Made by a program: the position numbers and the translations under genes
Origin: Erysipelotrichaceae bacterium
GTDB lineage: Bacteria; Bacillota_I; Bacilli_A; Erysipelotrichales; Erysipelotrichaceae
Reading direction: 5' to 3'
NCBI GenBank assembly: GCA_963663995.1
Contig: OY760660.1
Span: forward strand, 900,001 to 932,000
DNA: 32,000 nt
Notes under the pieces: model-generated
The model's input: only the letters and a program-made list of their open reading frames with translations
Database searches by the model: none
What the model was told of the DNA's origin: nothing
Shown here: one piece after another, positions 5,075 to 28,254 of the stretch
Numbering within the stretch: position 1 is the first letter of the stretch
Layout of the letters: each line of letters begins with the position of its first letter

Positions 5075-5415
5075 TTTGTATCTTTTATCTCATTTTTTAA
5101 AATAGCTATTTCTTGAGTGAGAATTTTATTTTGTTCTTTTAACTTCGACAAACTAATGGTTAAACTCATACTCATACCAACTAATGTAAATAATAATAAA
5201 GATATAAATAGATTTGAAAGATATTGAAATCCAAGAAATTTCACAAACTTTTGAATAAAAATGGGTGCTGAAATGGTTAATATCACTAAGCTAAAAAATA
5301 GAATCCAAATAATCGCATATTTAATAGACATGTTTCCATGAACAATTGAATAAAAAAGAAAGATAAGTGCTAAAATGCTCACTAATGCGATTTCTAGAAT
5401 TTGTATACTACTCAT
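5071..5415 (-). CDS. Small membrane protein, DUF2304/GacJ-like accessory subunit of the GT2 enzyme
   Basis: 114 aa. Hydrophobic helices are followed by a C-terminal amphipathic/coiled tail (LSKLKEQNKILTQEIAILKNEIKDTK). The central KYAIIWILFFSLVILTISAPIF...LGFQ..SNLFISLLLFTL pattern matches what I recall of DUF2304 proteins. It is translationally coupled to the GT2 gene. Confidence 0.65.
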   Translation of the reverse strand: MSSIQILEIALVSILALIFLFYSIVHGNMSIKYAIIWILFFSLVILTISAPIFIQKFVKFLGFQYLSNLFISLLLFTLVGMSMSLTISLSKLKEQNKILTQEIAILKNEIKDTK

Positions 5416-5430
5416 TTTTGGATCCTTTCT

Positions 5431-6219
5431 TTATTTTAGTTGATTGCTTTTTTCACTAAACTTATAAAAATACAATATTAAGTTGGCGATTGATTTTGGC
5501 CAAAATTTATTCAACACTTGAATATCTTCCTTCTGTCTCACGGATAATTCAATATATTTACTTGTCATTGATTGTTTATGTATGCGATGTGCCATTAAAT
5601 GTTTAGGGATATAGATAAATGAACCTTCTTTTCGTGATAAAGTCTCCCATGCTTTATAATCTAACGAAACACGATAGTTCTTGTCAAATAATGGGGGTTT
5701 AATTTTATCTACAACATAACAGACTGTTGGGCAAGAAATTGAAGATCCAAAAGATATGCTTAGTCGTTTAAAAAATATAATTGAATTTAATAAGCTGAAT
5801 CTTAAGATAAATAATAAAACTTTCTTTATGAAAAGATTTAAATTACATCGAGTTATGATTTTATCTCGTAACTCATCATAATCCGTAAAAAGTATCAGTG
5901 CTTTATTATTCTTTCGATAAGCATTTAATAGATTTTCACTATAAGATTCATAGTAAATATCATCTTGGTGTGCTAATGTAACAAGCCTTGTATGTGCTAG
6001 TGAAAGGGCAAAATTAAAATCATTCGCTAGTCCACTTTTATTATTTACGATAAGCTCTAATCGATATTTTTTAGCCAGTGTATCTATAAATTCATTAGGA
6101 GTTGAAGTCGATATAAAAACTTCAGATTTTATATTTTGTTTAAGCACTGATTTAATACAGTCTTCAAGATATGGTGATTCCTTATAGGCAAGTATTATAA
6201 AAGTATGATTGATATCCAT
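5431..6219 (-). CDS. Glycosyltransferase family 2
   Basis: 262 aa. N-terminal FIILAYKESPYLEDCIKSVLKQ (GT2 Rossmann-like start) and HQDDIY (DxD-like). First gene of the minus-strand sub-operon 6219->2314. Confidence 0.7.
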   Translation of the reverse strand: MDINHTFIILAYKESPYLEDCIKSVLKQNIKSEVFISTSTPNEFIDTLAKKYRLELIVNNKSGLANDFNFALSLAHTRLVTLAHQDDIYYESYSENLLNAYRKNNKALILFTDYDELRDKIITRCNLNLFIKKVLLFILRFSLLNSIIFFKRLSISFGSSISCPTVCYVVDKIKPPLFDKNYRVSLDYKAWETLSRKEGSFIYIPKHLMAHRIHKQSMTSKYIELSVRQKEDIQVLNKFWPKSIANLILYFYKFSEKSNQLK

Positions 6220-6285
6220 ATTTTAAGTGTGACATGAACTTTTCATAAGCGCAATGTTTAAGATGGATTATGCTAAACTACAAGT

Positions 6286-7233
6286 ATGAAACAAGCAAGT
6301 GTTGCCATCTTAATGGCTTGTTATAAGCCAAATATGAGCTATCTAAGACAACAACTCATCTGTATAAAAAATCAAAGTTACAAGAACTTAAAGCTCTTTG
6401 TTTTAGATGATAGTGATGATTTAACAGTTTTCACTTCTATCAAGGATTTGATACAAGAATTGCATTTCGAATTTGATATTTATATTGATCGAAACAAAAG
6501 TAATCTAGGTGCTAACTTAAGCTTTGAAAAACTTACAAAATGGGCAGATGCCAATTTCTTTGCCTACTGTGATCAAGATGATGTTTGGGCACCACATAAA
6601 ATTGAGACCTTATTAAACATATTAGATAAACCCAATAAAACTCTCGCATATTCTGATATGCGAATTATAGATAAAAACAATAATGTGCTGCATCCTTCCT
6701 TTTTCAAAATGTCACGAGTTTTAAAACCTGTAAAAGGCACAAATAGTTTTGCTCATTTATTACTTGAAAACAGTATTACTGGTTGTACACTTATTATCAA
6801 ATCTGATATCGCAAAAGCAGCTATTCCCTTCAATCATAGTTACGTGCATGATCATTGGTTATCATTATTCGCTAGTACAAAAGGTGAACTTATCTTTGTT
6901 GATGAGCCACTAGTTAATTATAGAATGCATGAATCCAATCAAATTGGAAGCGCACACTTACCTCATCTAGAAAATAAAACTCAGTATTATGAGCGAGTAA
7001 TTCTCAAAAATAAACGACGTATATATAACACACTAGACCGATTCGATGACAAAAACAAACTGATTAATCAATTAATTTCATTCTATATCGAGCGAGAAAA
7101 TTGTTATATAGGCAAGAAATCAAGAATATTACAATATTTTTTAAAATATCCAAAAATCATACTTTTTGAATATATACTCTTTAAACTTCCAGAAAAATAT
7201 TCCAACTATATTCTTAACAAATTAACTTCTTAG
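6286..7233 (+). CDS. Glycosyltransferase family 2 (rhamnosyl/hexosyl-transferase-like architecture)
   Basis: 315 aa. VAILMACYKPNMSYLRQQLICIKNQSY, FVLDDSDD and CDQDDVWAPHKIETLL motifs, typical of ~300-aa GT2 enzymes in O-antigen/rhamnan loci. Sugar specificity cannot be read from the sequence. Confidence 0.7.
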   Translation: MKQASVAILMACYKPNMSYLRQQLICIKNQSYKNLKLFVLDDSDDLTVFTSIKDLIQELHFEFDIYIDRNKSNLGANLSFEKLTKWADANFFAYCDQDDVWAPHKIETLLNILDKPNKTLAYSDMRIIDKNNNVLHPSFFKMSRVLKPVKGTNSFAHLLLENSITGCTLIIKSDIAKAAIPFNHSYVHDHWLSLFASTKGELIFVDEPLVNYRMHESNQIGSAHLPHLENKTQYYERVILKNKRRIYNTLDRFDDKNKLINQLISFYIERENCYIGKKSRILQYFLKYPKIILFEYILFKLPEKYSNYILNKLTS

Positions 7234-7236
7234 TCA

Positions 7237-8244
7237 TTACTTATTTAATTCAATATCTGACTGAATCATTTCACTGATTAATTGTTTAAAGCTAATAGTT
7301 GGTTGCCAATTAAGTTCTTGAATAGCTTTTGAATAATCACCTAATAAATCAACAACATCTGCAGGACGATAAAATATTGGATTAATCGAAATTCTTACTT
7401 CTTTTGTATTTTTATCAATACCCACTTCATCTGTTCCTTTTCCAAACCATTCAATCTCAATACCAACTTCTTTAAAAGCAAGTTCAACAAATTCTCTAAC
7501 ACTATGTGATTCGTTGCTTGAAATGACATAATCATTTGGCTTATCTTTTTGCAACATTAAATGCATGGCTAAAACATAATCTTTAGCATGACCCCAGTCG
7601 CGTTTAGCATCTAAATTTCCTAATTCGATTTTATCTTGTAATCCTAAATGTATACGAGCTATAGCTGTGGTAATTTTGCGAGTAACAAACTCTAAACCTC
7701 GTCGCTTTGATTCATGATTAAATAATATTCCACAACTAATAAACATGTTATAGGATTCACGATAATTGACACACATCCAATGAGCATATAATTTTGATAT
7801 ACCATATGGAGATCTTGGATAAAATGGTGTTTGTTCATTTTGAGGAACTTCTTGTACTAAGCCAAAAAGTTCACTCGTAGATGCTTGATATATCTTAATA
7901 TCTCTTTTTGTAAGCCGAACTGCTTCTAATAATTTTGTGACTCCAAAAGCATTCACTTCTGATGTTAACAAAGGTTGTTCCCAACTCGTTCCCACAAATG
8001 ATTGAGCAGCTAAATTATAAACTTCATCAGGTTGAGAAATTTCAAGAGCGCGTGTTAAAGAAACAAAATCAGTTATATCACCATAAATAAAATTGATTTT
8101 ATCTTTAATATGTTCAACATTTCCATAATCTAAATGACTTTTACGTCTCACTAAACCATAGACAAGATAATTCTTCTCTAATAATAATTCAGCTAAATAT
8201 GATCCATCCTGACCTGTAATTCCGGTTATAAGTGCACTTTTCAT
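7237..8244 (-). CDS. gmd: GDP-mannose 4,6-dehydratase
   Basis: 335 aa. The N-terminus ALITGITGQDGSYLAELLLEKNYLVYGLVRRKS is near-canonical for Gmd. YGISKLYAHW carries the catalytic YxxxK, and NHESKRRG is the conserved Gmd loop. Confidence 0.95.
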   Translation of the reverse strand: MKSALITGITGQDGSYLAELLLEKNYLVYGLVRRKSHLDYGNVEHIKDKINFIYGDITDFVSLTRALEISQPDEVYNLAAQSFVGTSWEQPLLTSEVNAFGVTKLLEAVRLTKRDIKIYQASTSELFGLVQEVPQNEQTPFYPRSPYGISKLYAHWMCVNYRESYNMFISCGILFNHESKRRGLEFVTRKITTAIARIHLGLQDKIELGNLDAKRDWGHAKDYVLAMHLMLQKDKPNDYVISSNESHSVREFVELAFKEVGIEIEWFGKGTDEVGIDKNTKEVRISINPIFYRPADVVDLLGDYSKAIQELNWQPTISFKQLISEMIQSDIELNK

Positions 8245-8264
8245 TCGACTTCTCCTTATTAATC

Positions 8265-9308
8265 TTATTTATGATTTTGATCTACTTTATTTAATAAGTC
8301 TTTTAGTTTATAAACTTCATCTTTGCTTGATATAAACAAAGTATCATCTGTATCTACAATAATCATATCTTTTAATCCAATACAGCTGATTAATTTCCTA
8401 TTTCCAAATATCATGCAGTTTTCAGTGTCTAAACTAACGACATTACCATCAATAATGTTACCTTCTTGATCAGGTACTTTTTGCCTTTCAAGGGCTGTCC
8501 AAGTACCCACATCATCCCAGTCGAAACTTGCTAAGATCATTTTAATCTGTGTTTCCTTTTCAAGTAATCCCTTATCAATCGAAAGAGGTTTCAGTTTATT
8601 ATATGCATCGATAATTTCTTCAGATTCTACATTTCTTAATTTATGAACAAGTTTAATGAGTTCACTATGCTGCGGTATTGTTTTTTCAATTTTGTTTAAA
8701 ATCGTAGATGCTTTCCAAATAAATATTCCACTATTCCAAAAATAATGGTTTGATTCTATATATTCATTAGCCAAAATTAAACCTGGTTTTTCTACAAATT
8801 CCTCAACATCATAAATACCATTTTTATTGCTTTGTGCTTTTATATAGCCATAAGCTGTTTCTGGATATTTTGCAGGAATACCAATCGTGACAAGATTATT
8901 ACTCACTGCAGTTTTAAAAGCAACATCCAAAGAATTATGAAAATTATCTGTATCTTTAATTAGATGGTCAGACGGTAAAACACAAATTAAACAATCACCT
9001 ATCTTACTTTTAATAATACTCGTCGCAAGCGTAATACAGGCAGCTGTGTTTTTCCTCATAGGCTCAACTATGATGTTTTTTAGTGGTATTTCAGGGCATT
9101 GTTCACAAATCAATGGAACATAAACTTCCCGAGTCACTATATAGATATCTTCAAATGAAAATTTTGAGATTAGCCTATTCACAGTTAATTGAAGCATGGT
9201 ATACCTTGGATCTATAAGATTAAAGAATTGTTTAGGTTTAATTTCCGTACTTTTCGGCCAAAAACGTTCACCCTTACCACCTGCCATAATAAGTGCAACT
9301 TTTTTCAA
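8265..9308 (-). CDS. manC: Mannose-1-phosphate guanylyltransferase (short form, no C-terminal isomerase/cupin domain)
   Basis: 347 aa. VALIMAGGKGERFWPKSTEIKPKQFFNL is the nucleotidyltransferase signature of ManC/CpsB-type enzymes. Adjacent to gmd. Its start overlaps the stop of the upstream GT4 gene (4-nt overlap, 9305-9308). Confidence 0.85.
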   Translation of the reverse strand: MKKVALIMAGGKGERFWPKSTEIKPKQFFNLIDPRYTMLQLTVNRLISKFSFEDIYIVTREVYVPLICEQCPEIPLKNIIVEPMRKNTAACITLATSIIKSKIGDCLICVLPSDHLIKDTDNFHNSLDVAFKTAVSNNLVTIGIPAKYPETAYGYIKAQSNKNGIYDVEEFVEKPGLILANEYIESNHYFWNSGIFIWKASTILNKIEKTIPQHSELIKLVHKLRNVESEEIIDAYNKLKPLSIDKGLLEKETQIKMILASFDWDDVGTWTALERQKVPDQEGNIIDGNVVSLDTENCMIFGNRKLISCIGLKDMIIVDTDDTLFISSKDEVYKLKDLLNKVDQNHK

Positions 9309-10555
9309 TATGTACTCCTTTCACCATAAATTTCATTTATTCTTTGTTTTATTTCAGAAGACATTACCTGAACATTGTAAAAATCATGAATATATCTTTT
9401 CGCATTACTACTAATCCGATTATAAAATTCTCTATCATCTACGAGTTTTTTCATATAGAATTTTGCAGTTTCAATATTTGCGTCAGCCCATTGATATCCC
9501 TTTTTATAAAAATCACGTGTTTTTGAAACGCCTATCAATTTATAATCAACTAAACACGAATTCTCTGCATTCATAAATTCTGTATTAGCTGAGTAATTGG
9601 TCGCTATTGTAGGTTTGCCTAAATACATGGCTTCAGCGAGAGTTAAACCAAAACCTTCACATCGATGAAGTGATATTAAAGCATCACAACAATCAATTAA
9701 AGAATTCACTTCTATTCGTGATAAAACATCCGTCATTAAAATAATATTGGGATTGTTTAGAGTAAATTCTTCAAGTTTTTTTAAATCTTCTTCTTTCGTG
9801 TGATTCATTTTAATCACAAGTGAAACTGAATCGGTCAACCTAAAACTTTCATTGAATGCCTTTATACTCGCAAAGACATTTTTTCGTTCCATTGAACTAT
9901 TAAAATCAAATAGGGTTATAAAGATAAAATGATCATCTTTTAATGTAAAGTATTTGCGATCCAGATCTTGTTTGACGTTTACTTGTATTGGATAATGAAA
10001 TGTCTTAATTGGCTTATCAGTATATTGTGATAATGTTTCAGTAATAAATTTTGATGGGGTCCAAATCTCATCTACTAAATAAAATGCTTTCTCCCACTCT
10101 TTGGGTAGTTCTTGAAATTCCCATAACCAAAATCCAATATTATATCGTTTATGAAATACTTTCTTGCCATAATAAAATAATGAAAAAAGTAATTCGGGCG
10201 GATTCAAATGAAAAATATTAATATTATAAATAAACTTATTTGAGATTTTATTGATATAGGTCATATCATCTCTATTGATATAATCAATGTAATCGAAGTC
10301 AATGAGTGAAACATCTAGATTTGTATGACTAGCTCCTTTTATTAGTAGTCGTACACTTTCTCCTAAGCCCATTTGTCCTTTTATTAAACCAATTATATTT
10401 AATCCATTAGGAAAAGCATCTTTTTTAAAAATACTTGTATAAGTGAATTTATGATATTGATAAAAAATACTAATTAAAAAAGTCTTTAAATTTCGAATAA
10501 ACTTAAAGTGTGATAATTTTTGATAAATATTCTTAATTAGATTAAGAATATTCAT
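9305..10555 (-). CDS. Glycosyltransferase, GT-B fold (family 4/1)
   Basis: 416 aa. The C-terminal half carries the GT4 signature ISLHRCEGFGLTLAEAMYLGKPTIATNYSANTEFM (E-x7-E motif). The N-terminal GLNIIGLIKGQMGLGESVR resembles mannosyl/rhamnosyl-transferases of polysaccharide loci. Confidence 0.75.
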   Translation of the reverse strand: MNILNLIKNIYQKLSHFKFIRNLKTFLISIFYQYHKFTYTSIFKKDAFPNGLNIIGLIKGQMGLGESVRLLIKGASHTNLDVSLIDFDYIDYINRDDMTYINKISNKFIYNINIFHLNPPELLFSLFYYGKKVFHKRYNIGFWLWEFQELPKEWEKAFYLVDEIWTPSKFITETLSQYTDKPIKTFHYPIQVNVKQDLDRKYFTLKDDHFIFITLFDFNSSMERKNVFASIKAFNESFRLTDSVSLVIKMNHTKEEDLKKLEEFTLNNPNIILMTDVLSRIEVNSLIDCCDALISLHRCEGFGLTLAEAMYLGKPTIATNYSANTEFMNAENSCLVDYKLIGVSKTRDFYKKGYQWADANIETAKFYMKKLVDDREFYNRISSNAKRYIHDFYNVQVMSSEIKQRINEIYGERSTY

Positions 10556-12489
10556 TAAATATCGTTCCTATTCTTCTTAGTAAAAAAATCAAGTAGGGAT
10601 AATATAGTTGATTCTAAATGATATTTTTCAACAAATTTAGTTTTATCATAAAAGCGATTTGAATCCATTACTGGAGTCTTATATTCTTGAAAGTCTATAT
10701 AATTTATTCTTATATTGGTTTTGATTTGTATTTGAATATTTTTTAGTAATTCACTTAGCGTAAAACTTTTTTTAGATCCTAGATTATAGATATTTTCCCA
10801 GTCTTGAGAAGAAGATTTTTCAAATAGTTTAATGGCTCTTGCCCCATCTCTTACATCTAATCGATTAAATATTGAACTGGAATCAATTTTAATATTAATT
10901 TCTTTATTTATTAAAGCTTGCTCAACTAACTTTGAAATTAGATCGACATCCACTAGACCACTTGTTCCACCCATAAGTGTACCTAATCTTAAAGAACTAA
11001 CATGAATATGTTTTACTCTTTCATGAACTGCTTCTAAAAATTTCTCAGTTTGATATTTTGCATGTTCATATAAAGTCATTAATTCAATATCACATTTCTC
11101 ATCACTGACCTTACTTGTTCCATACACAGATTGGGTTGAAATATTAATGATTTTTGGAACCTGAAACTTTTCAAATAGATTAAACAATTGAAAACTAAGA
11201 TTTAAACTACTAAATATTTCTTCATCACCTAGATGAGGTCGAGCAAAAGCACAATGAATAACACTATTCACCAATGATAAATCAACTTTTCCACTAAACA
11301 AATCATGATAACTAAAGTATTTTACATTGTCATGGTTTTTTAATGCATCTTCATTTCGTGTTAACCCCCATATTTCTATTGGGTCGTCCCTATATACGTT
11401 TTCTAGAGCTTGTCCTAAGTAACCGGATATACCAGTAATTAATATAATCTTTTGTTTATGAGTTTGATTTAACGAAATGACTTTATCAGTTGTTTGCCGA
11501 ACACCAACTTTTGACAAACAAACGTTTAAATTTGAGTGAGTTTTCATCTCTAAAAAATTAATAACGCTTGCTTCAACTTCATTAAATCCCATCAATGCTC
11601 TTAATCCAGAAATGCCTGTAAATCTTGCATTTAATTCAAATATTTTAAATCCAAAATCTGTCAATCGTCCTTGAATATTGATTGGGCCAACTACTTTTTC
11701 ATCAATTAGGATTTTTATGAGTGCTTCACATTGTGCCCAAATTTCAAACTCATCTATAGGCGTAATTTCAATTGGAACTCCATTATTCAATTTATTATAA
11801 GTCATCATTTTCCCAAGAATTTGATAATCTTTACTGATGATGTATTGAATAGAGATCTCAGAAATCTGCAAATTAAATCCTTTGTTTATTGATTTTAAGT
11901 ATGCTTCGTAATTTGTATCTTGTGAATGAGGATACGCAATTTCTTGAAAAACAAATTGTTCACCACATCCGTCTAAATCACTAATTTTTTGAATAATTCT
12001 AATATTTTTAGATGCAAAACCATCAAGTGGTTTGGCAATTACAGGAAATAGTTTAGAATTTTTAACGAGTTCTTCCTTTGTATATGATTTTACAAATAAA
12101 TGTGATATCAATGGATACATTGCATGCAGATTACGTTTATCTCTTATTTTAGAAATAAAAGAATAGTCAGCTACAATAATTAAAGTATTATGCTTTTCAA
12201 TGACATCTTTATGCTTTGCTAATAATAAAGCTTCATTGTCTGATCCAGGTATTAATAAATCGATATTAAATTTTTCAATATTTTCTAAAAGAACAGTCAA
12301 ATATTGAGAATCAAAAATGGATGGAATAATAATTGATTCATCACATTCAAACGAGCCAAATGCAAGTGGATTGTTTCCCATTCCAATGCTAAAAAAGTCA
12401 ATTTGACTGAGTCTTAAAGACGCAATAACGGACTGTCCTACTCCACTCCCAATACTCATGATTCCTATACATTTTTTATTTTTGTACAT
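10555..12489 (-). CDS. Fusion protein: N-terminal ATP-grasp amidoligase domain + C-terminal extended-SDR (NAD-dependent epimerase/dehydratase/reductase) domain
   Basis: 644 aa. Residues ~1-330 carry VIAKPLDGFASKNIRII and KIFELNARFTGISGL, which are CPSase/PylC-type ATP-grasp elements. Residues ~345-644 carry KIILITGISGYLGQ (Rossmann GxxGxxG) and YEHAKYQTEK (YxxxK). Its stop overlaps the start of the downstream GT4 gene by 1 nt (TAATG). Confidence 0.7.
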   Translation of the reverse strand: MYKNKKCIGIMSIGSGVGQSVIASLRLSQIDFFSIGMGNNPLAFGSFECDESIIIPSIFDSQYLTVLLENIEKFNIDLLIPGSDNEALLLAKHKDVIEKHNTLIIVADYSFISKIRDKRNLHAMYPLISHLFVKSYTKEELVKNSKLFPVIAKPLDGFASKNIRIIQKISDLDGCGEQFVFQEIAYPHSQDTNYEAYLKSINKGFNLQISEISIQYIISKDYQILGKMMTYNKLNNGVPIEITPIDEFEIWAQCEALIKILIDEKVVGPINIQGRLTDFGFKIFELNARFTGISGLRALMGFNEVEASVINFLEMKTHSNLNVCLSKVGVRQTTDKVISLNQTHKQKIILITGISGYLGQALENVYRDDPIEIWGLTRNEDALKNHDNVKYFSYHDLFSGKVDLSLVNSVIHCAFARPHLGDEEIFSSLNLSFQLFNLFEKFQVPKIINISTQSVYGTSKVSDEKCDIELMTLYEHAKYQTEKFLEAVHERVKHIHVSSLRLGTLMGGTSGLVDVDLISKLVEQALINKEINIKIDSSSIFNRLDVRDGARAIKLFEKSSSQDWENIYNLGSKKSFTLSELLKNIQIQIKTNIRINYIDFQEYKTPVMDSNRFYDKTKFVEKYHLESTILSLLDFFTKKNRNDI

Positions 12490-12611
12490 GTAAATTTAAT
12501 ACCTTTTCATATATTTAAGTAATTTACCTAAATTCTATCATTTATTACTGTATTCATCATGTTTCGTCTTTTTAGTATATTAAGATAAAACCAATATGCT
12601 AGTATTTAACT

Positions 12612-13697
12612 ATGAAAAATACATACAAAGCACAAAATCAAAGGATAATCTATAAAACACTTAAACGAATAGATTCAATGATTAACTTTCTTCGATTTTG
12701 GCTAGTTAATTTAGTTTTTATTAATCATTACAGAAAAAGTAGTATATACATAAAATTCTTAGCAATTCTCAATGGATTCACTCCAAGTCAGTTTATACTC
12801 TTTAATTTGAAAAATAATAATAAAAATGACTATATCAGAGAAATTGATAGATTTAAGATAGATCTGATAAATGGTGAGTTTAGGCATATACTAGAAAATA
12901 AATATCAATTTTACGAGATGTTTAAAGATATTATAAATCTGCCAAAATTAAATTTTTGGATTAACAATGGTGCCATTATTGATTTTCAGTCAAAACAAAA
13001 AGTTGAAACTGAATTTCTAGTAAAAACACTAATGAAATATGGGAAATTGTTAATAAAAGAGAACATGGGTGAAAATGGTCGTAATATATTCTTATTAGAA
13101 TATAAAAACGAACAAATATATTTTGATAATCAGGTGATTGATTTAATTGATTTAGAGAAAATTATTAAAAACTTACCTTCATCTTTAATAGTTGAATATG
13201 TTCTACAAGCAAGCTATTCAAATGAAATATTTTGTGAATCGGTAAACACTATTAGGATAATAACCATTCAAGACATTAGTAGTAACTTTGACACTAAAAT
13301 AGCATTAGCAATGCATCGATTTGGGCGAAACCCAAACAAGGCGATGGATAATGCAAGGGCTGGTGGAATTTATAGTTCCATTGATATTGATACAGGAATT
13401 CTCTCTTATGGATTGTCAAATATTGATAGTAATATTTATTACAAACACCCCATAAGTGAAAAACAGATAGAAGGAATTGTTATCCCACACTGGGACGAAA
13501 TCAAGACACAAGTTATTCATGCACACAAAAATTTTCCATATTTAAAATTTATTGCCTGGGATATTGCTGTTACTGAAACAGGATTAGTTGCACTAGAAGG
13601 AAATCTATCTACAGGATTATATCTTATCCAAGCTCATAAGGGTCAACGAAATTCAGAGCTAGGTGAATTCTATAGATTACAGGGTCTTATAAAGTGA
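12612..13697 (+). CDS. ATP-grasp protein of the sugar-transfer-associated type (ATPgrasp_ST-like), paralog A
   Basis: 361 aa. KLLIKENMGENGRNIFLLEY (ATP-grasp lysine region) and the C-terminal FIAWDIAVTETGLVALEGNLSTG, which I recognise as the WDIA...E-x-N end motif of this family. No strong RBS at the annotated ATG, so the start is uncertain. Confidence 0.6.
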   Translation: MKNTYKAQNQRIIYKTLKRIDSMINFLRFWLVNLVFINHYRKSSIYIKFLAILNGFTPSQFILFNLKNNNKNDYIREIDRFKIDLINGEFRHILENKYQFYEMFKDIINLPKLNFWINNGAIIDFQSKQKVETEFLVKTLMKYGKLLIKENMGENGRNIFLLEYKNEQIYFDNQVIDLIDLEKIIKNLPSSLIVEYVLQASYSNEIFCESVNTIRIITIQDISSNFDTKIALAMHRFGRNPNKAMDNARAGGIYSSIDIDTGILSYGLSNIDSNIYYKHPISEKQIEGIVIPHWDEIKTQVIHAHKNFPYLKFIAWDIAVTETGLVALEGNLSTGLYLIQAHKGQRNSELGEFYRLQGLIK

Positions 13698-13701
13698 AAT
13701 C

Positions 13702-14751
13702 ATGTTAAACAAATTACAATCATTTATACTTTTTTACTTAAGCAATTTTATTAGCAATAAAAGAGCTTTTTTCATGATTAAACTCGTACAAAAAGATCAT
13801 AAAAAAGTAACTTTAAATGAAAATTTAAAATTGATTAAATATGCGAAAGAACAATATGGATCAATACTTTTCATGCCTTGGTTGAAAGTCTATTTCATAA
13901 TTTCTGGAAAATTTCCTTATGATTGTATTCCAGATAACTACATGGATTATTATGTTTTACCTAAAATAAATAAAAATTATCGAATGATTGCAAAAACTAA
14001 AACATTAACGAAAAGAATACTAAATACAGATCTTTTAAATGATGAATTTTTTGTCATTAACAAACATATTTATGATAAAGATATGCAAATGATTAATTTC
14101 GACATTTTAATGGATACATTAATGAGAAACAGAAAGAAGTACATTGTTAAACGCGATGATTCATCAGGTTCACAACACATTTATATTATTAACTTTGAGA
14201 ATTTTGATAAACAAAAATTAATTAATTTTGGTGACTCAGTGATACAAAGAATGATAAATCAAGATGAAGAGTACTTGCCATTAAGTCAAACTATTGCGAC
14301 TACTCTAAGAGTATCGACATTACTTGACGATAAAGGATATGTAAAAGTCATTGGGTCATACGTCAGATTATATTATGATCATTCTGATATTTTTAATCCA
14401 AATAGGAAAATTAGAATTATGGTCAAGTCAAATGGGCAATTAAATGAGATTGGTCATAATGAAAAATATATGGAAATATCGATTAATCCCCTTTCAAATA
14501 CTCCACTAAATCAGTATTGCATACCACATATTAATGAAGCTTATGAAGTTTGCATAAAACTTCATAAACAAATACCACAATTTTCTTATATTGGTTGGGA
14601 TATTGCTTTTGACAAAGATGAAGGCATTAGATTGCTAGAATGGAATACACAATATCCAAACATTACTTATCTAGAGTCAGTTTCTGGACCAATTTTCAAA
14701 GATCAATTGTGGAACAACATCTGGAAGGAAAATGGAAAATTCAGATTTTAA
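13702..14751 (+). CDS. ATP-grasp protein of the sugar-transfer-associated type (ATPgrasp_ST-like), paralog B
   Basis: 349 aa. KYIVKRDDSSGSQHIYIINF and the C-terminal YIGWDIAFDKDEGIRLLEWNTQYPN parallel the motifs of the upstream paralog. It starts 4 nt after the paralog A stop. Its 3' end overlaps the convergent DegT gene by 11 nt. Confidence 0.6.
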   Translation: MLNKLQSFILFYLSNFISNKRAFFMIKLVQKDHKKVTLNENLKLIKYAKEQYGSILFMPWLKVYFIISGKFPYDCIPDNYMDYYVLPKINKNYRMIAKTKTLTKRILNTDLLNDEFFVINKHIYDKDMQMINFDILMDTLMRNRKKYIVKRDDSSGSQHIYIINFENFDKQKLINFGDSVIQRMINQDEEYLPLSQTIATTLRVSTLLDDKGYVKVIGSYVRLYYDHSDIFNPNRKIRIMVKSNGQLNEIGHNEKYMEISINPLSNTPLNQYCIPHINEAYEVCIKLHKQIPQFSYIGWDIAFDKDEGIRLLEWNTQYPNITYLESVSGPIFKDQLWNNIWKENGKFRF

Positions 14752-15832
14752 AATAATTATTTATGCTTTGAATGATAAAATCAATTTCATCATCCTTTAG
14801 TAACGCAAAAATAGGTAAATTTACAATTCGACTTGCCAAATCCATAGATTTTTTTAAATGGTTAGATAAGTACTTATCTTTATAACATGTATACTCGCTT
14901 GCGATTGGGAAAAAATATTTCTTGGTTTCAATTCCTAAATCTAATAAATAGTGGCTTAAATCATCCCTAACCATTTGATTTTCTAAAAGTATTGAAAAAT
15001 ATATATAATTGGGCTCTACATCTTTTTGTGGTTGAAAAAATGTGATGGGTAAATGAGATAAGCCTTTGATATACTTGTTAAAAATAATTTTTCTCATTGT
15101 TACATCATTTTCAATTAAAGGTAATGTTAACAAACCCATAATGGCCTGCATCTCATTCATTTTCAAATTGCTGCCAATATAAGTGACATCACCATTTCGC
15201 ATTCCAAAGTATTTTATTAACTCTAACTTTTCTAAATACTTATTATCTTTGACAGTTACAATTCCACCTTCGATTGTATTAAATACTTTTGTAATATTCA
15301 TACTATACATATTTGCGTCACCAAACGAAGATACATCTTTACTCTTATATTTAACGCCAAAAACATGAGCTGCATCAAAAATTAACTTTAAATCATTCAA
15401 TTTTGCTATTTTTTCCAAAGCTTCAACGTTACATATATTACCTAAAACATGTACCGGTAATATGGCGACAGTTCTATCAGTTATGAGACTCTCAACTTTA
15501 GACTCATCAATTGTTAGATCATCTTTTATGTCACAAAAAACAGGAATACAGCCTTTTCTGACAATTGCATGAATAGTAGAAGGAAATGTGAATGCCGTAG
15601 TAATAATTTCTCCTTTTAAATCAAACACTTCTAATATTGATTCCAATGATAGATGTCCATTAACAAATAAAGAAAGATTATCTGTACCTAAATATTGCTT
15701 AAGTTCTAACTCGAGTTGCTCATGTTGTTTACCTTTATTCGTAAAATGATAGGACTCAAAAACTTCTTTTACTTTTTTATTATATTCATCAACATCAGGT
15801 AATAAGGGTTTTAAAAATGGTATTTTCATCAT
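14741..15832 (-). CDS. DegT/DnrJ/EryC1/StrS-family PLP-dependent sugar aminotransferase (candidate GDP-4-keto-6-deoxymannose aminotransferase / perosamine-synthase-like)
   Basis: 363 aa. IPFLKPLLPD start, FTNKGKQHEQLELELKQYLG, AILPVHVLGNICN, DAAHVFG, and YSMNITKVFNTIEGG with the Schiff-base lysine retained (so an aminotransferase rather than a ColD-type dehydratase). Nucleotide-sugar specificity is inferred only from the neighbouring manC-gmd. Confidence 0.8.
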   Translation of the reverse strand: MMKIPFLKPLLPDVDEYNKKVKEVFESYHFTNKGKQHEQLELELKQYLGTDNLSLFVNGHLSLESILEVFDLKGEIITTAFTFPSTIHAIVRKGCIPVFCDIKDDLTIDESKVESLITDRTVAILPVHVLGNICNVEALEKIAKLNDLKLIFDAAHVFGVKYKSKDVSSFGDANMYSMNITKVFNTIEGGIVTVKDNKYLEKLELIKYFGMRNGDVTYIGSNLKMNEMQAIMGLLTLPLIENDVTMRKIIFNKYIKGLSHLPITFFQPQKDVEPNYIYFSILLENQMVRDDLSHYLLDLGIETKKYFFPIASEYTCYKDKYLSNHLKKSMDLASRIVNLPIFALLKDDEIDFIIQSINNYFKI

Positions 15833-15842
15833 ATGACTTCCT

Positions 15843-16781
15843 TTAATAGAAATATTTGATTAATAAATGTCGGATCAAAGTTGAATATTTCGGTGAGAAA
15901 TATTCAACAATCAAAAATAATCGATGTGTTTTAGTTTTATAATTAATTTTTGAATAATATTCCTTGAATGTCATATCCTTTTTAATATAAGTATCGATAA
16001 ATTCAATGTGTTTTGTAATATAAGAATTAAATTCATACTTTGTTTCAATATTATATTGTTCAAGAAAATCTCTTTTTAGTTGATAAGTTTTATATAAAAT
16101 TTGAGGATCTTTCGCTAATCGATCTGACCAAGAATTTTTAACACCTGTTCTATATACAGACATTACTTCAGCAAGATAATATATTCTACCCAATGTAACA
16201 ACATGATGTGTAATAATTGAATCTGCAGTCCTAAGTTTTATATAAAAATCTGGCATCAACATCACACCTCTTCTTACCATTAAACTATTGAAATGGAAAA
16301 TGGGGTTAAAAGATTTTATAACTGAACTTTGATCTACAAATCCGTTATTTCTTTGATAATAGTGATTTCTTCTAATTTTTGTATTTTGATTAAAACTTTT
16401 ATAAGCATGCGCTACTAACGAAACTTCATTAAACCTTTCAAGAATATCGATTTGTTTTTCGAGTTTATAAATATCTGTCCAATAGTCATCACCTTCACAA
16501 AATGCAATATATTCACCAGAACTTTGTTGAAAATTCAGCATATTCACTGACTTTCCTTTCGAATATTGATTCTCATCCTGCAAAATAACTTTAAATAATT
16601 GAGGGTATTTATTTTGATATTCCCTGATGATATAAGCTGTATTATCAGTTGATGCATCATCATGAATGCAAATTTCAAAATCATATTTTGTTTTTTGCAT
16701 TATAAAACTATCTAACGCTTTTGCAATGTATTTTTCATGATTAAAACAGTGACACAGTATGCTAACTTTTGGCTTATTCAT
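15843..16781 (-). CDS. Glycosyltransferase family 2
   Basis: 312 aa. KVSILCHCFNHEKYIAKALDSFIMQ, ICIHDDASTDNT and FCEGDDYW (DxD) are typical GT2 motifs. First gene after a 430-bp non-coding gap. There is no good RBS within 10 nt of the ATG; AAGGAGAG lies 27 nt upstream. Confidence 0.8.
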   Translation of the reverse strand: MNKPKVSILCHCFNHEKYIAKALDSFIMQKTKYDFEICIHDDASTDNTAYIIREYQNKYPQLFKVILQDENQYSKGKSVNMLNFQQSSGEYIAFCEGDDYWTDIYKLEKQIDILERFNEVSLVAHAYKSFNQNTKIRRNHYYQRNNGFVDQSSVIKSFNPIFHFNSLMVRRGVMLMPDFYIKLRTADSIITHHVVTLGRIYYLAEVMSVYRTGVKNSWSDRLAKDPQILYKTYQLKRDFLEQYNIETKYEFNSYITKHIEFIDTYIKKDMTFKEYYSKINYKTKTHRLFLIVEYFSPKYSTLIRHLLIKYFY

Positions 16782-16891
16782 TTTTTTGTCAAAGAAATAG
16801 ACGACTCTCCTTTATACATTACAAAACATCTTCAGAATTTTCATCATACACAAAAAGCATATCACAATGATTTTAAATGTTGATTTCAATT

Positions 16892-16900
16892 AGTATAGCA
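16892..16900 (-). promoter_or_regulatory. Candidate extended -10 promoter element (TGCTATACT) for the GT2-DegT transcription unit
   Basis: The reverse complement of 16892-16900 reads TGCTATACT (TGnTATAcT), about 110 nt upstream of the GT2 start. Sequence pattern only. Confidence 0.25.
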
Positions 16901-17212
16901 TCACATTTTCTTTAGATAATTATCTCTTATTAGAATTTTTAGATTATTATATATGATTTTTTATCAATATGTTTCTAAAAGTAAGTTTAATTTTAAAATA
17001 AAAATTCGAAAATCAGTTTCTATTGATTTGATTTTAAGTCTGTGTGATTGTCTTTATTTTATTTAGATATTTACTTTGTTACGCTTCAACAATTCTTTCT
17101 ATATTATTAATGGCTCATTATCATGCTTGTGTATTTCAAAATCAATATCATAAATTGCATTAGATAACTATTAATCGCTTAAGTGTTATAGTTTAATTAT
17201 GCAATTAAGGAA

Positions 17213-18661
17213 TTATATAAATTCAAATCTAGCATAAGCTTTTATCTCTTCATAGAATTGATTTCGTTTAACTTTATAACTTGTATGGTAAGGCATTTCT
17301 TCAAGAACGGCTAATACAGTAGGTAATTTAAAAGTTGCAACTTTATTATGTAAAAATGATCGTACTTCATTTAAACTCATTGTTTCATTTTCTTTTAGAG
17401 TCACAGCACATGCGACTTCATCAAATCCGTTTTTGTTTGTATAAGGAAAAACAACCACTTCATTTATTTTACTAAAATGACTAAGTATGGCTTCAATTTC
17501 AAACGGTGATACTTTTTCACCACCACGATTTATCATTTCTTTTTTTCGACCAATCAATATTAAATAACCATTTTCGTCTATGTAGCCTAAATCACCTGTT
17601 AAAAACCATCCATCATTAAAGTTTTCAATAGACTCATGATGCATATATTCACCAATAACAGTCGGACCACTTACACATACTTCCCCATCCTCAATTTTAT
17701 AGGGTAAATAGACTTTTCCTACACTCCCTTTTATCGCTTTACATTGATAAGTTGTTGATATAATTCCAGTCTCTGTTAAACCATATGAATTAACCACTTC
17801 TGCATTTAAACGCTTTGAAAGGTTTGTAAGTATCGCATCATTGATCGCTGAACCAATGGTTAATAGATAACCATTTTGTTGTTCAATAAATATATCTTCT
17901 CGATTCAAATAGTCATTTAAATATGTCCATACAGCTGGTGGACCAGAAATATAGGTGACCGATTTCAGTTTTAAATAGTGAATAATCGCAGATGGATTAA
18001 AATAATTCAATAATATAACTTCCCCCATATTTGCGATGACTCTAATACTTGATGTAATTGTTAAAACACGTGACATTTTAGCGAGTTGAATATATCGTGT
18101 TTGATCATTGAAATCGACAAATTGATCTCTCGCAAGATAAGCCCTATAGTTAACTTCAAATATTTTAGGTTTACTGGTCGTTCCACTTGTTTGAATGACA
18201 TATGAAATTTGTGTCTCACTCTTTTGATACTTACATGTACAGTCTTTAATTTTCTCAAAATGATATCCATTCGCATGAAATAAATAAAAACCTACGTTAG
18301 ACTCATTCACAGCCCTGACAATAGGATGTGTCAATGAATCACATAACACAAAATCAACCTCAGCATTTATTAATGTACTTTTGTATTTTTCTTCAAAAAA
18401 ATCATAGTCTTCAAAAATAAGTGTTTGTCTTTCGACTAAAACAAAACTTAAAATTAAATAATCCAGTGGATTTGCGACACAAAGTAAAAAACGCGTATTC
18501 TGATCAAATGGTTTTAGAAACTTTTCTACGATCTCTATACGCTCATATAATTCTCTATAGTTAATCGATTGACCATTGATAATACTTATCGCATTTTTAT
18601 CTATATAGTAATGATAATTATCCTTAAACTGCTTTAAAAAGCTTTGATTATTTATCTTCAT
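17213..18661 (-). CDS. ANL-superfamily adenylate-forming enzyme (acyl-CoA synthetase / carrier-protein ligase-like)
   Basis: 482 aa. VIQTSGTTSKPKIF (A3/P-loop motif with G->S deviation), NSYGLTETG (A5), TGDLGYIDENGYLILIGRKKEMINRGGEKVSPFEIE (A7-A8) and a C-terminal SYKVKR (A10 lysine). Confidence 0.85.
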   Translation of the reverse strand: MKINNQSFLKQFKDNYHYYIDKNAISIINGQSINYRELYERIEIVEKFLKPFDQNTRFLLCVANPLDYLILSFVLVERQTLIFEDYDFFEEKYKSTLINAEVDFVLCDSLTHPIVRAVNESNVGFYLFHANGYHFEKIKDCTCKYQKSETQISYVIQTSGTTSKPKIFEVNYRAYLARDQFVDFNDQTRYIQLAKMSRVLTITSSIRVIANMGEVILLNYFNPSAIIHYLKLKSVTYISGPPAVWTYLNDYLNREDIFIEQQNGYLLTIGSAINDAILTNLSKRLNAEVVNSYGLTETGIISTTYQCKAIKGSVGKVYLPYKIEDGEVCVSGPTVIGEYMHHESIENFNDGWFLTGDLGYIDENGYLILIGRKKEMINRGGEKVSPFEIEAILSHFSKINEVVVFPYTNKNGFDEVACAVTLKENETMSLNEVRSFLHNKVATFKLPTVLAVLEEMPYHTSYKVKRNQFYEEIKAYARFEFI

Positions 18662-20188: not shown

Positions 20189-20297
20189 TTAAATATATTA
20201 AGTTATTTTTATTTTATAAAAAATAAATAGAATTGGGTAGAAACTGATAGTGTGCATTTTTTGCTTTTGCATCATGTATTTAATTCAATCTAGTGAT

Positions 20298-20325
20298 TAA
20301 AAAACTCATCCTTGCGAATGAGTTC
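20298..20325 (-). terminator. Rho-independent terminator after the aspartate kinase gene
   Basis: On the minus strand: AACTCAT-tcgcaagg-ATGAGTT followed by TTTTT (plus strand 20299-20324), starting 9 nt after the TAA at 20334-20336. Confidence 0.6.
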
Positions 20326-20333
20326 ATAATCAT

Positions 20334-21641: not shown

Positions 21642-21642
21642 C

Positions 21643-22800: not shown

Positions 22801-22821
22801 AACTTTTCTCTGTTTCTATTT

Positions 22822-22839
22822 TGAATACACTTGTATTCA
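22822..22839. promoter_or_regulatory. Perfect palindrome in the divergent hom / thrC promoter region (candidate operator)
   Basis: TGAATAC-ACTT-GTATTCA (7-bp arms, 4-bp spacer), centred in the 87-bp hom-thrC intergenic region. No binding factor is known from the sequence. Confidence 0.25.
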
Positions 22840-22887
22840 CATTGAAAACAGTGTAACCTATGTACAAACGAATTTCAAGGTGAACAT

Positions 22888-25589: not shown

Positions 25590-25620
25590 AAGAGCCAATC
25601 TTATCGATTCGCTCTTTTTT
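25589..25620 (+). terminator. Hairpin/T-run after the thrC-thrB-ACT operon (overlaps the 3' end of the convergent YjbR-like gene)
   Basis: AAAGAGC (25589-25595), a 15-nt loop, then GCTCTTT (25611-17) followed by TTT. Confidence 0.45.
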
Positions 25621-25969: not shown

Positions 25970-25997
25970 AAGTTGTCTCTATTTAATTATAAATGAT

Positions 25998-26585: not shown

Positions 26586-26602
26586 ACTATTTACCTCCTT
26601 TC

Positions 26603-28140: not shown

Positions 28141-28254
28141 AAAACTCCTTGTTAAAATAATCGTAAATTTATCCTTTTATACCAAAATATGATCATATCT
28201 TATGAAAGAGTAATTGAAGAATAGTTCTTAAAATTCTTATTTATGCAAAAAAGG

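Follow-up and report, generated by a model that had tools for sequence, protein, structure and literature searches.

A DegT-family aminotransferase, an ATP-grasp/SDR fusion and paired ATP-grasp ligases suggest ATP-driven acylation of an amino sugar in a bacterial glycan locus

The stretch of Erysipelotrichaceae DNA analyzed here (32,000 nt, hereafter the window) carries a cell-envelope glycan locus of a low-GC bacterium, in which ATP-driven ligases probably attach an acid or an amino acid to an amino sugar. In the reading that we favor, with a probability of roughly 45%, the amine of a GDP-4-amino-4,6-dideoxyhexose installed by a DegT-family aminotransferase would be acylated by the ATP-grasp half of a bifunctional ATP-grasp/SDR protein, extended by the ligases ST1 and ST2, and the product moved by a GT2 glycosyltransferase. 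The conserved unit is smaller than the locus: DegT, the fusion and GT2 form a portable and widely conserved cassette. While acylation by ATP-grasp enzymes has precedent, the fusion architecture belongs to a widespread and apparently unstudied family of at least 585 proteins, which we consider the most valuable lead of the analysis.

All open reading frames of at least 80 aa between positions 2314 and 18661 were assigned (Table 1), and ORF calling with Pfam and NCBIfam searches recovered in place every gene and domain that a first-pass annotation of this DNA had listed.

Table 1. Genes of the glycan locus, with positions in the window
Position	Strand	Assignment	Basis
2314–6219	-	Flanking glycan genes: 685-aa polytopic membrane protein, polyprenyl-phosphate-type GT2, DUF2304, second GT2	
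6286–7233	+	GT2 glycosyltransferase inside the glycan locus	Domain search
7237–8244	-	Gmd, GDP-mannose 4,6-dehydratase	TIGR01472, O157 Gmd match, STSE
8265–9308	-	ManC-type mannose-1-phosphate guanylyltransferase, no PMI domain	Pfam NTP_transferase + ManC_GMP_beta-helix
9305–10555	-	GT4/GT1-family glycosyltransferase, translationally coupled to the fusion gene	Pfam Glycos_transf_1
10555–12489	-	Bifunctional ATP-grasp (aa 1–332) + linker + extended SDR (aa 345–644)	Pfam, NCBIfam, AF2
12612–13697	+	ST1, ATPgrasp_ST (PF14397) ligase	130 bits Pfam
13702–14751	+	ST2, divergent ATPgrasp_ST ligase, paired with ST1	78 bits Pfam
14741–15832	-	DegT-family PLP sugar aminotransferase (K182), fusion-linked DesI-like clade	Pfam, tree, bootstraps
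15843–16781	-	GT2 glycosyltransferase, family accompanying the cassette	Pfam Glycos_transf_2
17213–18661	-	AMP-binding acyl-activating enzyme, possible accessory	Pfam/NCBIfam, position

The supply of the sugar would start with ManC (32% identity with O157 ManC) and Gmd, which together are expected to make GDP-4-keto-6-deoxy-D-mannose. The latter scored 462.8 bits in the NCBIfam profile search (TIGR01472, cutoff 415), shares 51% identity with the Gmd of E. coli O157 and keeps its catalytic motif. The ManC and GT4 genes overlap by 4 nt, GT4 and the fusion gene by 1 nt, and ManC and Gmd are spaced by 20 nt; with such junctions, a point absent from the first-pass annotation, the fusion, GT4, ManC and Gmd genes almost certainly form one transcription unit. 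As had been claimed, no Fcl-like GDP-fucose synthase gene was found in the window, and apart from DegT, only the SDR half of the fusion protein is a candidate for consuming a 4-keto sugar.

DegT (257 bits, Pfam) carries its catalytic Lys within the motif NITK and would convert the Gmd product to a perosamine-type GDP-4-amino-4,6-dideoxyhexose. Indeed, ManC, Gmd and a single DegT-family enzyme with catalytic Lys recall the GDP-perosamine pathway of E. coli O157 and Caulobacter (ManC, Gmd, Per/RfbE, PerB), but ManB, Fcl and a PerB-type acetyltransferase are absent from the window and its DegT falls outside the Per clade. The earlier proposal of a Per/RfbE-type GDP-perosamine synthase was rejected, as DegT split from O157 Per in 100/100 bootstraps, with DesI as the nearest characterized reference (92/100), and joined a clade of fusion-adjacent enzymes sharing the motif TKVFNTIEGG that stands apart from all reference enzymes (83/100). 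Its two closest relatives (42–43% identity) lie directly upstream of rmlA-rmlB. Since DegT is neither Per-like nor closest to enzymes from GDP-sugar loci, its presumed use of a GDP sugar is read from gene position only. The clustering with dTDP/UDP-sugar enzymes, which the first-pass annotation had named as adverse to its proposal, was thus observed, albeit an inability to act on a GDP sugar does not follow from it.

The conservation of the cassette was surveyed in 80 fusion loci from 80 genomes of many phyla, with adjacency scored over 79. DegT directly adjoins the fusion gene in 36/79 loci and lies within 10 kb in 50–53 of the 80, and the amine it installs is still the most likely nucleophile, as first suggested. 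Homologues of the GT2 at 15843–16781 were present in 25/80 loci, mostly one to three genes from the fusion; the window protein shares 33% identity with the GT2 of locus L097. The combination of gmd, DegT and the ATP-grasp trio, previously put forward for a co-occurrence search, is not a conserved unit: a true Gmd occurred in 1/80 loci, which has its own Fcl, and ATPgrasp_ST in 2/80. RmlA was found in 15/80 loci and RmlB in 15/80, with compact sets such as Fusion-RmlA-DegT-RmlB (L083), Fusion-LbH-DegT-RmlA-RmlB (L098) and ATP-grasp-DegT-RmlA-RmlB (L097). Elsewhere the cassette is usually fed by RmlA/RmlB with dTDP-4-keto-6-deoxyglucose, and in the window ManC/Gmd stand where L083 and L098 have RmlA/RmlB. 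Two further observations count against the main reading: of 44 loci with complete flanks, 14 have the fusion but no DegT within 10 kb, and in S. meliloti the fusion is encoded as two separate genes next to genes for PAPS synthesis.

The fusion protein (644 aa, AF2 model pLDDT 83.9) has a disordered linker at residues 333–344. Its N-terminal half matched PylC-like_N (34 bits, cutoff 27; Pfam) and NF009402 (136 bits; NCBIfam), the C-terminal half is an extended SDR (Epimerase, 67.6 bits; Pfam), and Foldseek and profile matches included Rmd, 4-epimerases and 2pn1. Residues invariant in the family include K153, E285, N287, G353, G356, Y474 and K478. The ATP-grasp half would activate a free carboxylic acid (an amino, 2-oxo or hydroxy acid) as acyl-phosphate and ligate it to the sugar amine, by analogy with Pyl in UDP-yelosamine synthesis, whereas the SDR half might use NADPH to reduce a keto group on the freshly attached acyl moiety or, in parallel, to convert the 4-keto sugar to a 6-deoxyhexose. 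In layout the protein resembles E. coli ArnA of the L-Ara4N pathway, which has about 650 aa, joins an N-acylating domain at the N-terminus to an extended SDR at the C-terminus, and is likewise accompanied by a DegT-family aminotransferase and a GT2 (ArnB, ArnC). However, the acylating domain of ArnA is a formyltransferase rather than an ATP-grasp, and its SDR is a UDP-GlcA oxidative decarboxylase with T-S-E, where the fusion has S-Q-S and an NADP-type Arg; the ArnA C-terminal domain reached a profile match of only 1e-10.

The SDR half possesses GxxGxxG and Y-x3-K (Y474/K478), lacks the dehydratase acid and, like the NADP(H) enzymes Fcl and Gmd, has an Arg following beta2. Judged from sequence and model, it likely belongs to the Rmd/Preq class of NADPH-dependent reductases or epimerases, which makes a second fate for the Gmd product plausible, with the SDR half as its possible second consumer. 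Its best match in both sequence and fold was the GDP-4-keto-6-deoxymannose reductase 2pk3 (Rmd; E 2e-5), and Preq, an NADPH 4-reductase, shares 33% identity with Rmd. The likeness to these 4-reductases lies in Y-x3-K, the Arg and the missing acid and is read from sequence and fold at about 18% identity; unlike them, the SDR half is fused to an ATP-grasp domain and stands out by an HxGFARPH segment with five residues deleted. These features would also suit two separate pathways, with ManC, Gmd and the SDR half making GDP-D-rhamnose or GDP-6-deoxy-D-talose for GT4, and DegT with the ATP-grasp half acting on dTDP-4-keto-6-deoxyglucose from rmlA/rmlB elsewhere in the genome. We regard such a division as possible but rather unlikely. 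It agrees with the rmlA-rmlB neighborhood of the closest DegT relatives, and among the 23 fully flanked loci where DegT adjoins the fusion, 10 lacked a dehydratase within 10 kb, so that reliance on distant rmlAB is common. However, the similarity to Rmd is weak, the family profile favors 4-epimerase-like enzymes over Rmd, and the position of ManC/Gmd in the RmlA/RmlB slot speaks for a single pathway. Moreover, loci that lack Gmd conserve the SDR half just as well, and a GDP-specific role is therefore not the general function of this domain.

A very improbable alternative is a carboxylate-to-amine conversion, in which the ATP-grasp half would form an acyl-phosphate, the SDR half reduce it to an aldehyde and DegT transaminate the latter. 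This logic resembles that of LysX/LysZ/LysY/LysJ, a DegT-family enzyme aminating a sugar aldehyde exists (8-amino-Kdo transaminase, 5k8b), and the thioester-reductase profile TIGR01746 matched weakly (E 2.7e-5), but no thioester reductase was among the top 50–60 Foldseek and profile matches of the SDR half, which groups with nucleotide-sugar epimerases and reductases. In addition, a DesI-like DegT implies a ring-ketone substrate, and the RmlA/RmlB linkage points to 4-keto-6-deoxy sugars.

Acylation of the DegT amine by ATP-grasp ligases, the favored reading, is consistent with the absence of the usual enzymes. No GNAT, hexapeptide acyltransferase or formyltransferase was present among the ORFs of at least 80 aa at 2314–18661, and tblastn queries with PerB/WbdR, WecD and the ArnA formyltransferase domain gave no match in the window, which upholds the claimed lack of an N-acyltransferase, its place being occupied by the ligases. 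Two precedents are comparable at the level of the reaction described. In Bacillus cereus, the ATP-grasp Pyl is reported to couple a UDP-4-amino sugar with 2-oxoglutarate (Hwang et al., 2014, JBC, as cited in PMC11626204 and PMC8987622). The UDP-yelosamine pathway of strain ATCC 14579 is outlined there as a 4,6-dehydratase, the aminotransferase Pat and Pyl, such that a 4-keto-6-deoxy nucleotide sugar is aminated at C4 and N-acylated with ATP and a free acid, without an acetyltransferase. As presented in those accounts, the Pyl substrate derives from UDP-HexNAc, compared with a feed from GDP-mannose in the window and from dTDP-glucose in its relatives; the window ligase further differs in its SDR fusion and in the two accompanying ligases of another family. 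In Neisseria meningitidis PglB2, an ATP-grasp domain replaces the acetyltransferase domain, and the 4-amine of 2,4-diamino-2,4,6-trideoxyhexose bears a glyceramido instead of an acetyl group (PMC11130364, PMC6959607). The evidence there is genetic and mass-spectrometric, and the domain is fused to a phosphoglycosyltransferase, not an SDR, with a UDP sugar as substrate. Known glycans that contain N-aminoacyl Qui4N provide a further precedent.

ST1 and ST2 share 24% identity and both exceed the ATPgrasp_ST cutoff of 31.4 bits. All three ATP-grasp domains of the locus retained the family-invariant ATP/Mg residues (Lys, Thr/Arg, Asp, E-x-N), as the proposal demands. ST1 kept every invariant residue of its family, while in ST2 the Gly loop is degenerate and QR replaces EE. 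ST1 was modeled as an ATP-grasp fold (AF2 pLDDT 89.6) with PsnB, LysX and RimK as the nearest, distant solved folds; no solved homologue of it was found by sequence. Many ST family members have two ST domains per chain, mirroring the ST1-ST2 gene pair. The two enzymes would add further amide-linked residue(s), probably from a free carboxylate in the RimK/LysX manner, before GT2 passes the modified sugar on; the substituent might be a di- or tripeptide.

The pair is a local insertion, and a role outside the sugar pathway, with ST1/ST2 modifying peptides, proteins or some other wall polymer like RimK or graspetide ligases, is improbable. The folds, a weak match to the RimK-related TIGR02291, the strand opposite to the rest of the locus and the co-occurrence of ST with the fusion in only 2/80 loci fit such a role, but the insertion falls precisely between DegT and the fusion gene, which would otherwise adjoin, the vicinity shows no obvious gene for a precursor peptide or a target, and all PF14397 relatives whose neighborhoods were examined belong to polysaccharide or teichoic-acid loci. 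Some of those loci lack an aminotransferase, which counts against the main reading and would suit the reverse polarity, where the ATP-grasp(s) activate a carboxylate of the sugar or glycan (a uronic acid or acidic substituent) for a small-molecule amine, possibly made by DegT. PsnB, LysX and RimK all activate a carboxylate of a macromolecule, and the TupA-like ATP-grasp Cj1438C of Campylobacter jejuni uses serinol-P or ethanolamine-P to amidate GlcA at its C6-carboxylate (PMC11800379), in a surface-polysaccharide locus whose cluster also holds PLP enzymes. However, Cj1438C belongs to a different Pfam family (neither ST1 nor ST2 had a TupA-like Pfam match at E ≤ 0.01), the window has no uronic-acid supply genes of the Ugd or WecC type, found in only 6/80 related loci, and DegT groups with nucleotide-sugar 4-aminotransferases such as DesI (122–128 bits against sugar aminotransferases) rather than with the Cj1436/1437-like chain 7kz3 (85 bits). 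We hold this polarity to be equally improbable. With Cj1438C and Pyl, the statement that no substrate is defined for any such enzyme no longer holds; of the first interpretation overall, the ligases in place of an acyltransferase and the DegT amine endure, but not the Per-type DegT, the conserved trio or this statement.

The AMP-binding acyl-activating gene, absent from the first-pass annotation, is set apart by a 431-nt gap with no carrier protein gene nearby, and its product is a possible accessory of the pathway.

The ORF map of the window agreed exactly with the coordinates of the first-pass annotation, and each of its domain calls was confirmed by Pfam and NCBIfam.

Features of the glycan locus and its surroundings (window-relative positions)
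Position	Strand	Feature	Assignment	Source
280-2136	-	618-aa membrane protein	TRAP-transporter DctM type, left edge of the locus	
2314-5415	-	three-part set	243-aa GT2, small DUF2304 membrane protein, 685-aa polytopic membrane protein	
7237-8244	-	Gmd	GDP-mannose 4,6-dehydratase	NCBIfam
8265-9308	-	ManC	ManC-type guanylyltransferase, without PMI domain	Pfam/NCBIfam
9305-10555	-	GT4	glycosyltransferase, between fusion and ManC	Pfam/NCBIfam
10555-12489	-	fusion, 644 aa	N-terminal ATP-grasp (PylC-like_N; NF009402 'carbamoyl-phosphate-synthase-like'), C-terminal extended SDR	
12612-13697	+	ST1	ATPgrasp_ST protein, neighbour of ST2	Pfam
13702-14751	+	ST2	ATPgrasp_ST protein, neighbour of ST1	Pfam
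14741-15832	-	DegT	PLP sugar aminotransferase	
15843-16781	-	GT2	glycosyltransferase	Pfam/NCBIfam
17213-18661	-	AMP-binding protein	acyl-activating enzyme (acyl-CoA ligase or MenE-like)	
18779-20188	-	ChW protein	weak ChW (clostridial hydrophobic W) repeat match	
28472-29827	-	ChW protein	weak ChW repeat match	
30132-31898	-	ChW protein	weak ChW repeat match	

Gmd exceeded the cutoff of the TIGR01472 equivalog (462.8 bits against 415) and kept the catalytic STSE motif. The proposed absence of an N-acyltransferase was borne out: Pfam searches of every ORF between 2.3 and 18.7 kb found no GNAT, hexapeptide or formyl transferase, and tblastn with PerB, WecD and the ArnA formyltransferase domain gave no match in the window. 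As read from gene spacing, the minus strand carries two transcription units, GT2-DegT and, almost certainly, fusion-GT4-ManC-Gmd; in the latter, neighbouring genes overlap by 1 nt and 4 nt at the first two junctions and are 20 nt apart at the third. The ST1-ST2 pair lies between both units, diverging from the fusion over 122 nt and overlapping convergently with DegT by 11 nt. A promoter/terminator scan of this AT-rich DNA returned 110 sites against 125 expected. The GC content of the glycan locus (2314-18661) was 27.9%, compared with 33.1% in the threonine-biosynthesis and other housekeeping genes to its right (19000-32000), a difference that would fit a surface-glycan region that is variable or has been exchanged horizontally. 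The window's glycosyltransferases showed generic GT2 similarity only to the transferases of the O157 perosamine cluster. Our main reading, to which we give a probability of about 0.45, is that the locus makes, from GDP-mannose, a 4-amino-4,6-dideoxyhexose that is N-acylated and may be extended further.

All three ATP-grasp domains are intact, with the invariant ATP/Mg residues retained in alignments of 24 members of the fusion family and of 27 ST proteins. In the former, the ATP-binding K153, E285-x-N287, the SDR glycine loop and Y474/K478 were all invariant. The N-terminal half of the fusion belongs to the PylC-like ATP-grasp proteins (PF21360, 34.1 bits against a threshold of 27) and scored 136 bits with NF009402, under the equivalog cutoff of 218. 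ST1 and ST2 exceeded the PF14397 gathering threshold of 31.4 with 130.4 and 78 bits, respectively, and both retained all 10 non-initiator invariant columns (Lys, the NTIR Thr/Arg, the WDIA Asp and E-x-N). ST2 departs from the family at several near-invariant positions: its glycine loop is degenerate, and Q-R stands where E-E is usual. Confident AlphaFold models were obtained for ST1 (pLDDT 89.6) and for the fusion (pLDDT 83.9), the linker of the latter (333-344) being disordered. The fusion and ST types are, judged by sequence, related only remotely, hhalign aligning the Lys region alone at 77% probability. A sequence search of solved structures with ST1 found no homologue, and the modelled fold is distantly similar to PsnB, LysX/ArgX, RimK and Ddl. 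The ATPgrasp_ST family counts 15,178 cluster representatives (50% identity) at E <= 1e-3, none with a solved structure, and we know of no characterised member. Many of these proteins have two ST domains per chain or are very long, up to ~2,100 aa (including P0185 and P0181), and the two-domain chains fit ST1 and ST2 acting as a pair. No sugar-transferase domain was present in the ~520-aa members examined. That ST1 and ST2 act on a target other than the sugar is, in our estimate, improbable. In L008/L009 (8282-10996), loci from a Bacillota MAG, an ATPgrasp_ST gene comes immediately after genes for an HpcH/HpaI aldolase and a 2-hydroxyacid dehydrogenase, with a PglF-like dehydratase and a small phosphoglycosyltransferase encoded alongside; such an arrangement suggests that the locus itself supplies a hydroxy acid for ligation to a sugar.

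The aminotransferase has the fold-type I PLP/Lys signature expected of Per/RfbE (PF01041, 257 bits; catalytic K182 in 'NITK') and is encoded in the same locus as manC/gmd, about 6.5 kb away; these two genes share a predicted unit with the fusion, the usual partner of DegT. Its expected grouping with Per/RfbE nevertheless failed: in a neighbour-joining tree of ~30%-identical sequences, comprising all DegTs of 80 related loci together with E. coli ArnB, WecE and O157 Per (ECs_2841) and the PDB sequences of PseC, DesI, QdtB and 3uwc, it was split from O157 Per in 100/100 bootstraps and had DesI, which aminates a 4-keto-6-deoxyhexose at C-4, as its nearest reference (92/100). Among solved structures, it was roughly equidistant from QdtB, PseC, DesI, WlaRG-type enzymes and Per, with 110 bits to Caulobacter Per 3bn1 and 122-128 bits to DesI, PseC and QdtB. 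Fusion-adjacent DegTs formed one clade, except that of L054, which paired with DesI; the window protein joined the clade at its base and shared its motif TKVFNTIEGG, and the clade including it was split from all references in 83/100 bootstraps. The two closest relatives (42.5-43% identity), from loci L097 and L098, are encoded directly upstream of rmlA-rmlB. From this clade, the proximity to DesI, the shared motif and the rmlA-rmlB-linked relatives, DegT is predicted, by every indirect criterion, to be a 4-keto-6-deoxyhexose C-4 aminotransferase and not a Per/RfbE orthologue. Its use of a GDP-sugar we infer solely from ManC/Gmd standing in the position held elsewhere by RmlA/RmlB. A colitose route (ColD plus ColC) was rejected, as DegT retains its Lys and matched ColD only at E 5e-12.

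The C-terminal half of the fusion is an extended SDR of the 4-ketoreductase/epimerase type with a nucleotide-sugar fold, its residues G353/G356, S451, Y474 and K478 being invariant in the family. Foldseek gave 2pk3, a GDP-4-keto-6-deoxymannose reductase, as the best match (E 4e-18), alongside GalE-type enzymes, with UDP-hexose and UDP-uronate 4-epimerases and RmlB next in rank, while the family profile favoured 3m2p, a CDP-glucitol-forming reductase and UDP-GlcA 4-epimerase. In alignment with E. coli ArnA, Gmd, Fcl, Gne and RmlB, S-Q-S replaces the T-D-E or T-S-E of dehydratases and decarboxylases. The roles of an ArnA-like oxidative decarboxylase and of a 4,6-dehydratase (RmlB, Gmd, UXS) were thus discarded because the catalytic acid is missing. 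An Arg follows beta2, a feature shared with Fcl and Gmd, which are NADP(H) enzymes, and the segment 'HxGFARPH', which carries a 5-residue deletion, is unusual. Taken together, the fold and profile matches, S-Q-S and the NADP-type Arg point to an NADPH-dependent reductase, or else an epimerase, as the most likely identity of this half, and predict that this half does not make the keto sugar. A conversion of carboxylate to amine, in which ATP-grasp, the SDR as acyl-phosphate reductase and DegT would act together, is very improbable, since the SDR matches are nucleotide-sugar epimerases and reductases, and no thioester reductase was among the top 50-60 Foldseek and profile matches. The SDR half may act on the acyl chain, reducing a keto group there. 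Alternatively, it may stand at a branch point as a 4-reductase of the Rmd or Preq kind, and the window would then also turn the Gmd product into a 6-deoxyhexose. A further, rather doubtful but appreciable alternative is that ManC/Gmd and the SDR half yield a GDP-6-deoxyhexose, with DegT and the ATP-grasp half using a dTDP sugar supplied from elsewhere.

The distribution of the fusion was examined in 80 loci from species-representative genomes, in which ORFs were clustered and 44 loci were fully flanked. The family (~670 aa) has at least 585 homologues, with 35-48% identity among members, spread over Bacteroidota, Chlorobi, Bacillota, Izimaplasma, Acidobacteriota, Pseudomonadota and others. A conserved unit of gmd, DegT and the ATP-grasp trio, as suggested before, was not found: ATPgrasp_ST accompanied the fusion in two loci, both Mariniphaga, and a true Gmd occurred once, in L024, with its own Fcl. 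DegT lay within 10 kb of the fusion in 50-53 of the 80 loci (immediately upstream in 31, immediately downstream in 5), and a GT2 of the window's type in 25. The linkage between fusion and DegT is not strict, 14 of the 44 fully flanked loci having no DegT within 10 kb. RmlA and RmlB were the commonest sugar-activation partners (15/80 each), followed by PglF/PseB-type dehydratases (13/44 fully flanked loci). Recurrent compact gene orders included Fusion-RmlA-DegT-RmlB in L083 (Peribacillus glennii), Fusion-LbH-DegT-RmlA-RmlB in L098, a stand-alone ATP-grasp followed by DegT-RmlA-RmlB in L097, and DegT-Fusion in both L005 (Chloroherpeton) and L091 (Chengkuizengella), the latter having no other sugar genes nearby. 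Algoriphagus is another carrier of the cassette.

Several variants of the surroundings were seen. In L099 (Sinorhizobium meliloti pSymB, 8884-10922) the ATP-grasp and SDR halves are separate genes overlapping by 4 nt; the pair comes after CysD-, CysNC- and CysQ-like (PAPS-synthesis) genes plus one with a PHP domain, and DegT is missing from its vicinity. Matches to its ATP-grasp gene occurred in 64 Sinorhizobium plasmids. In five other loci the gene just 3' of the fusion belongs to a P-loop family resembling sulfotransferases by eye. The ATP-grasp and SDR pair may have some connection with sulfation. A WbqC-like protein (PF08889) directly adjoins the fusion gene in L097 (9250-9978) and L024 (12197-12901). 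WbqC takes its name from the O-antigen cluster making N-acetylglycyl-Qui4N, and the WbqC-like protein may be another component of aminoacyl-sugar synthesis.

Bacterial surface amino sugars often bear non-acetyl groups on the amine (alanyl, glycyl, hydroxybutyryl-alanyl, glyceroyl, oxoglutaryl), which shape the antigenicity of surface glycans; for most of them we know of no attaching enzyme. The compact cassette of DegT, ATP-grasp/SDR fusion and GT2 defined here, which spans Bacteroidota, Chlorobi, Bacillota and Pseudomonadota with 35-48% identity, is a candidate for this missing chemistry and is directly testable in vitro. The window itself represents a natural experiment in which the RmlA/RmlB feed is swapped for ManC/Gmd and two extra ligases are gained. 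A more far-reaching proposal, which we consider unlikely, is that the cassette is the long-missing installer of aminoacyl or hydroxyacyl groups on 4-amino-6-deoxyhexoses of O-antigens, capsules and wall glycans in many phyla; in the GDP-mannose-fed version with two ST ligases, three ATP-grasp steps would then build an oligo-amide chain, di- or tripeptidyl or acyl-aminoacyl, on a perosamine-type sugar. In the part of the literature searched, we found no characterisation of the cassette, nor a description of the fusion family, its close coupling to a DegT clade of its own and a GT2, the GDP-mannose-fed version or the combination with two ST-family ligases.

The first-pass statement that no ATP-grasp member in such a context has a defined substrate does not stand, the activities of Cj1438C and Pyl being defined. 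According to PMC11626204 (section 13) and PMC8987622 (title of reference 100), the ATP-grasp enzyme Pyl of B. cereus UDP-yelosamine synthesis, which operates with the aminotransferase Pat, acylates the 4-amine of a UDP-4-amino sugar with 2-oxoglutarate. The window resembles this setting, its ligases having a sugar 4-aminotransferase and a 4,6-dehydratase nearby and no acyltransferase. Preq was dismissed as part of the Pyl operon, since Pdeg/Preq form a separate two-gene operon. In Neisseria PglB2, an ATP-grasp domain replaces the acetyltransferase domain of PglB, and the product is a 4-glyceramido sugar (PMC11130364, PMC6959607). With these precedents, systems in which an ATP-grasp enzyme, in place of an acyltransferase, acts on an amine installed by DegT are of a known kind. 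Amino sugars with aminoacyl groups are likewise established products, as Qui4N occurs in glycans with N-acetylglycyl, N-(3-hydroxybutyryl)-L-alanyl and N-acetyl-D-alanyl groups (PMC3210612). Like E. coli ArnA, which works with ArnB and ArnC, the fusion joins an acylating domain and an SDR in one protein; however, its SDR chemistry differs. The TupA-like C. jejuni Cj1438C has a polarity opposite to the proposed acylation, with the carboxylate belonging to the sugar: it activates the C6-carboxylate of capsule glucuronate and adds serinol-P or ethanolamine-P (PMC11800379). A reverse-polarity amidation of this sort in the window has little probability, and its uronic-acid form is weak because Ugd/WecC genes are absent from the window and rare in related loci (uronic-acid dehydrogenases in 6/80); no TupA-like Pfam match was obtained at E <= 0.01.

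Apart from the cassette, the AMP-binding gene, absent from the first-pass annotation, lies 431 nt from GT2 without a nearby carrier protein or acyltransferase; its product, below all equivalog cutoffs, could prepare a glycan acyl group or be unrelated. The genes of the three-part set overlap by 4 and 29 nt. The GT2 of this set is closest to the polyprenyl-phosphate glycosyltransferases PpgS, AglJ and ArnC, and the 685-aa protein has a soluble C-terminal domain and no Pfam or NCBIfam match. Such a combination is typical of extracytoplasmic glycosylation, and it could provide a wall polymer with a lipid-linked sugar, which might be the decorated one. The DctM-type protein is longer than usual and is probably a fused DctQM. 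The three proteins with ChW matches, of which the first (18779-20188) has a signal-peptide-like start, are probably wall-associated surface proteins, indicating a Bacillota-type envelope. The same locus was present on a 10.6-kb metagenome contig (L001; ENA ERZ21862665 ctg3678l) with identical ST1 and fusion proteins, while its GT4, ST2 and AMP-binding genes were called shorter or split, probably owing to long-read sequencing errors.
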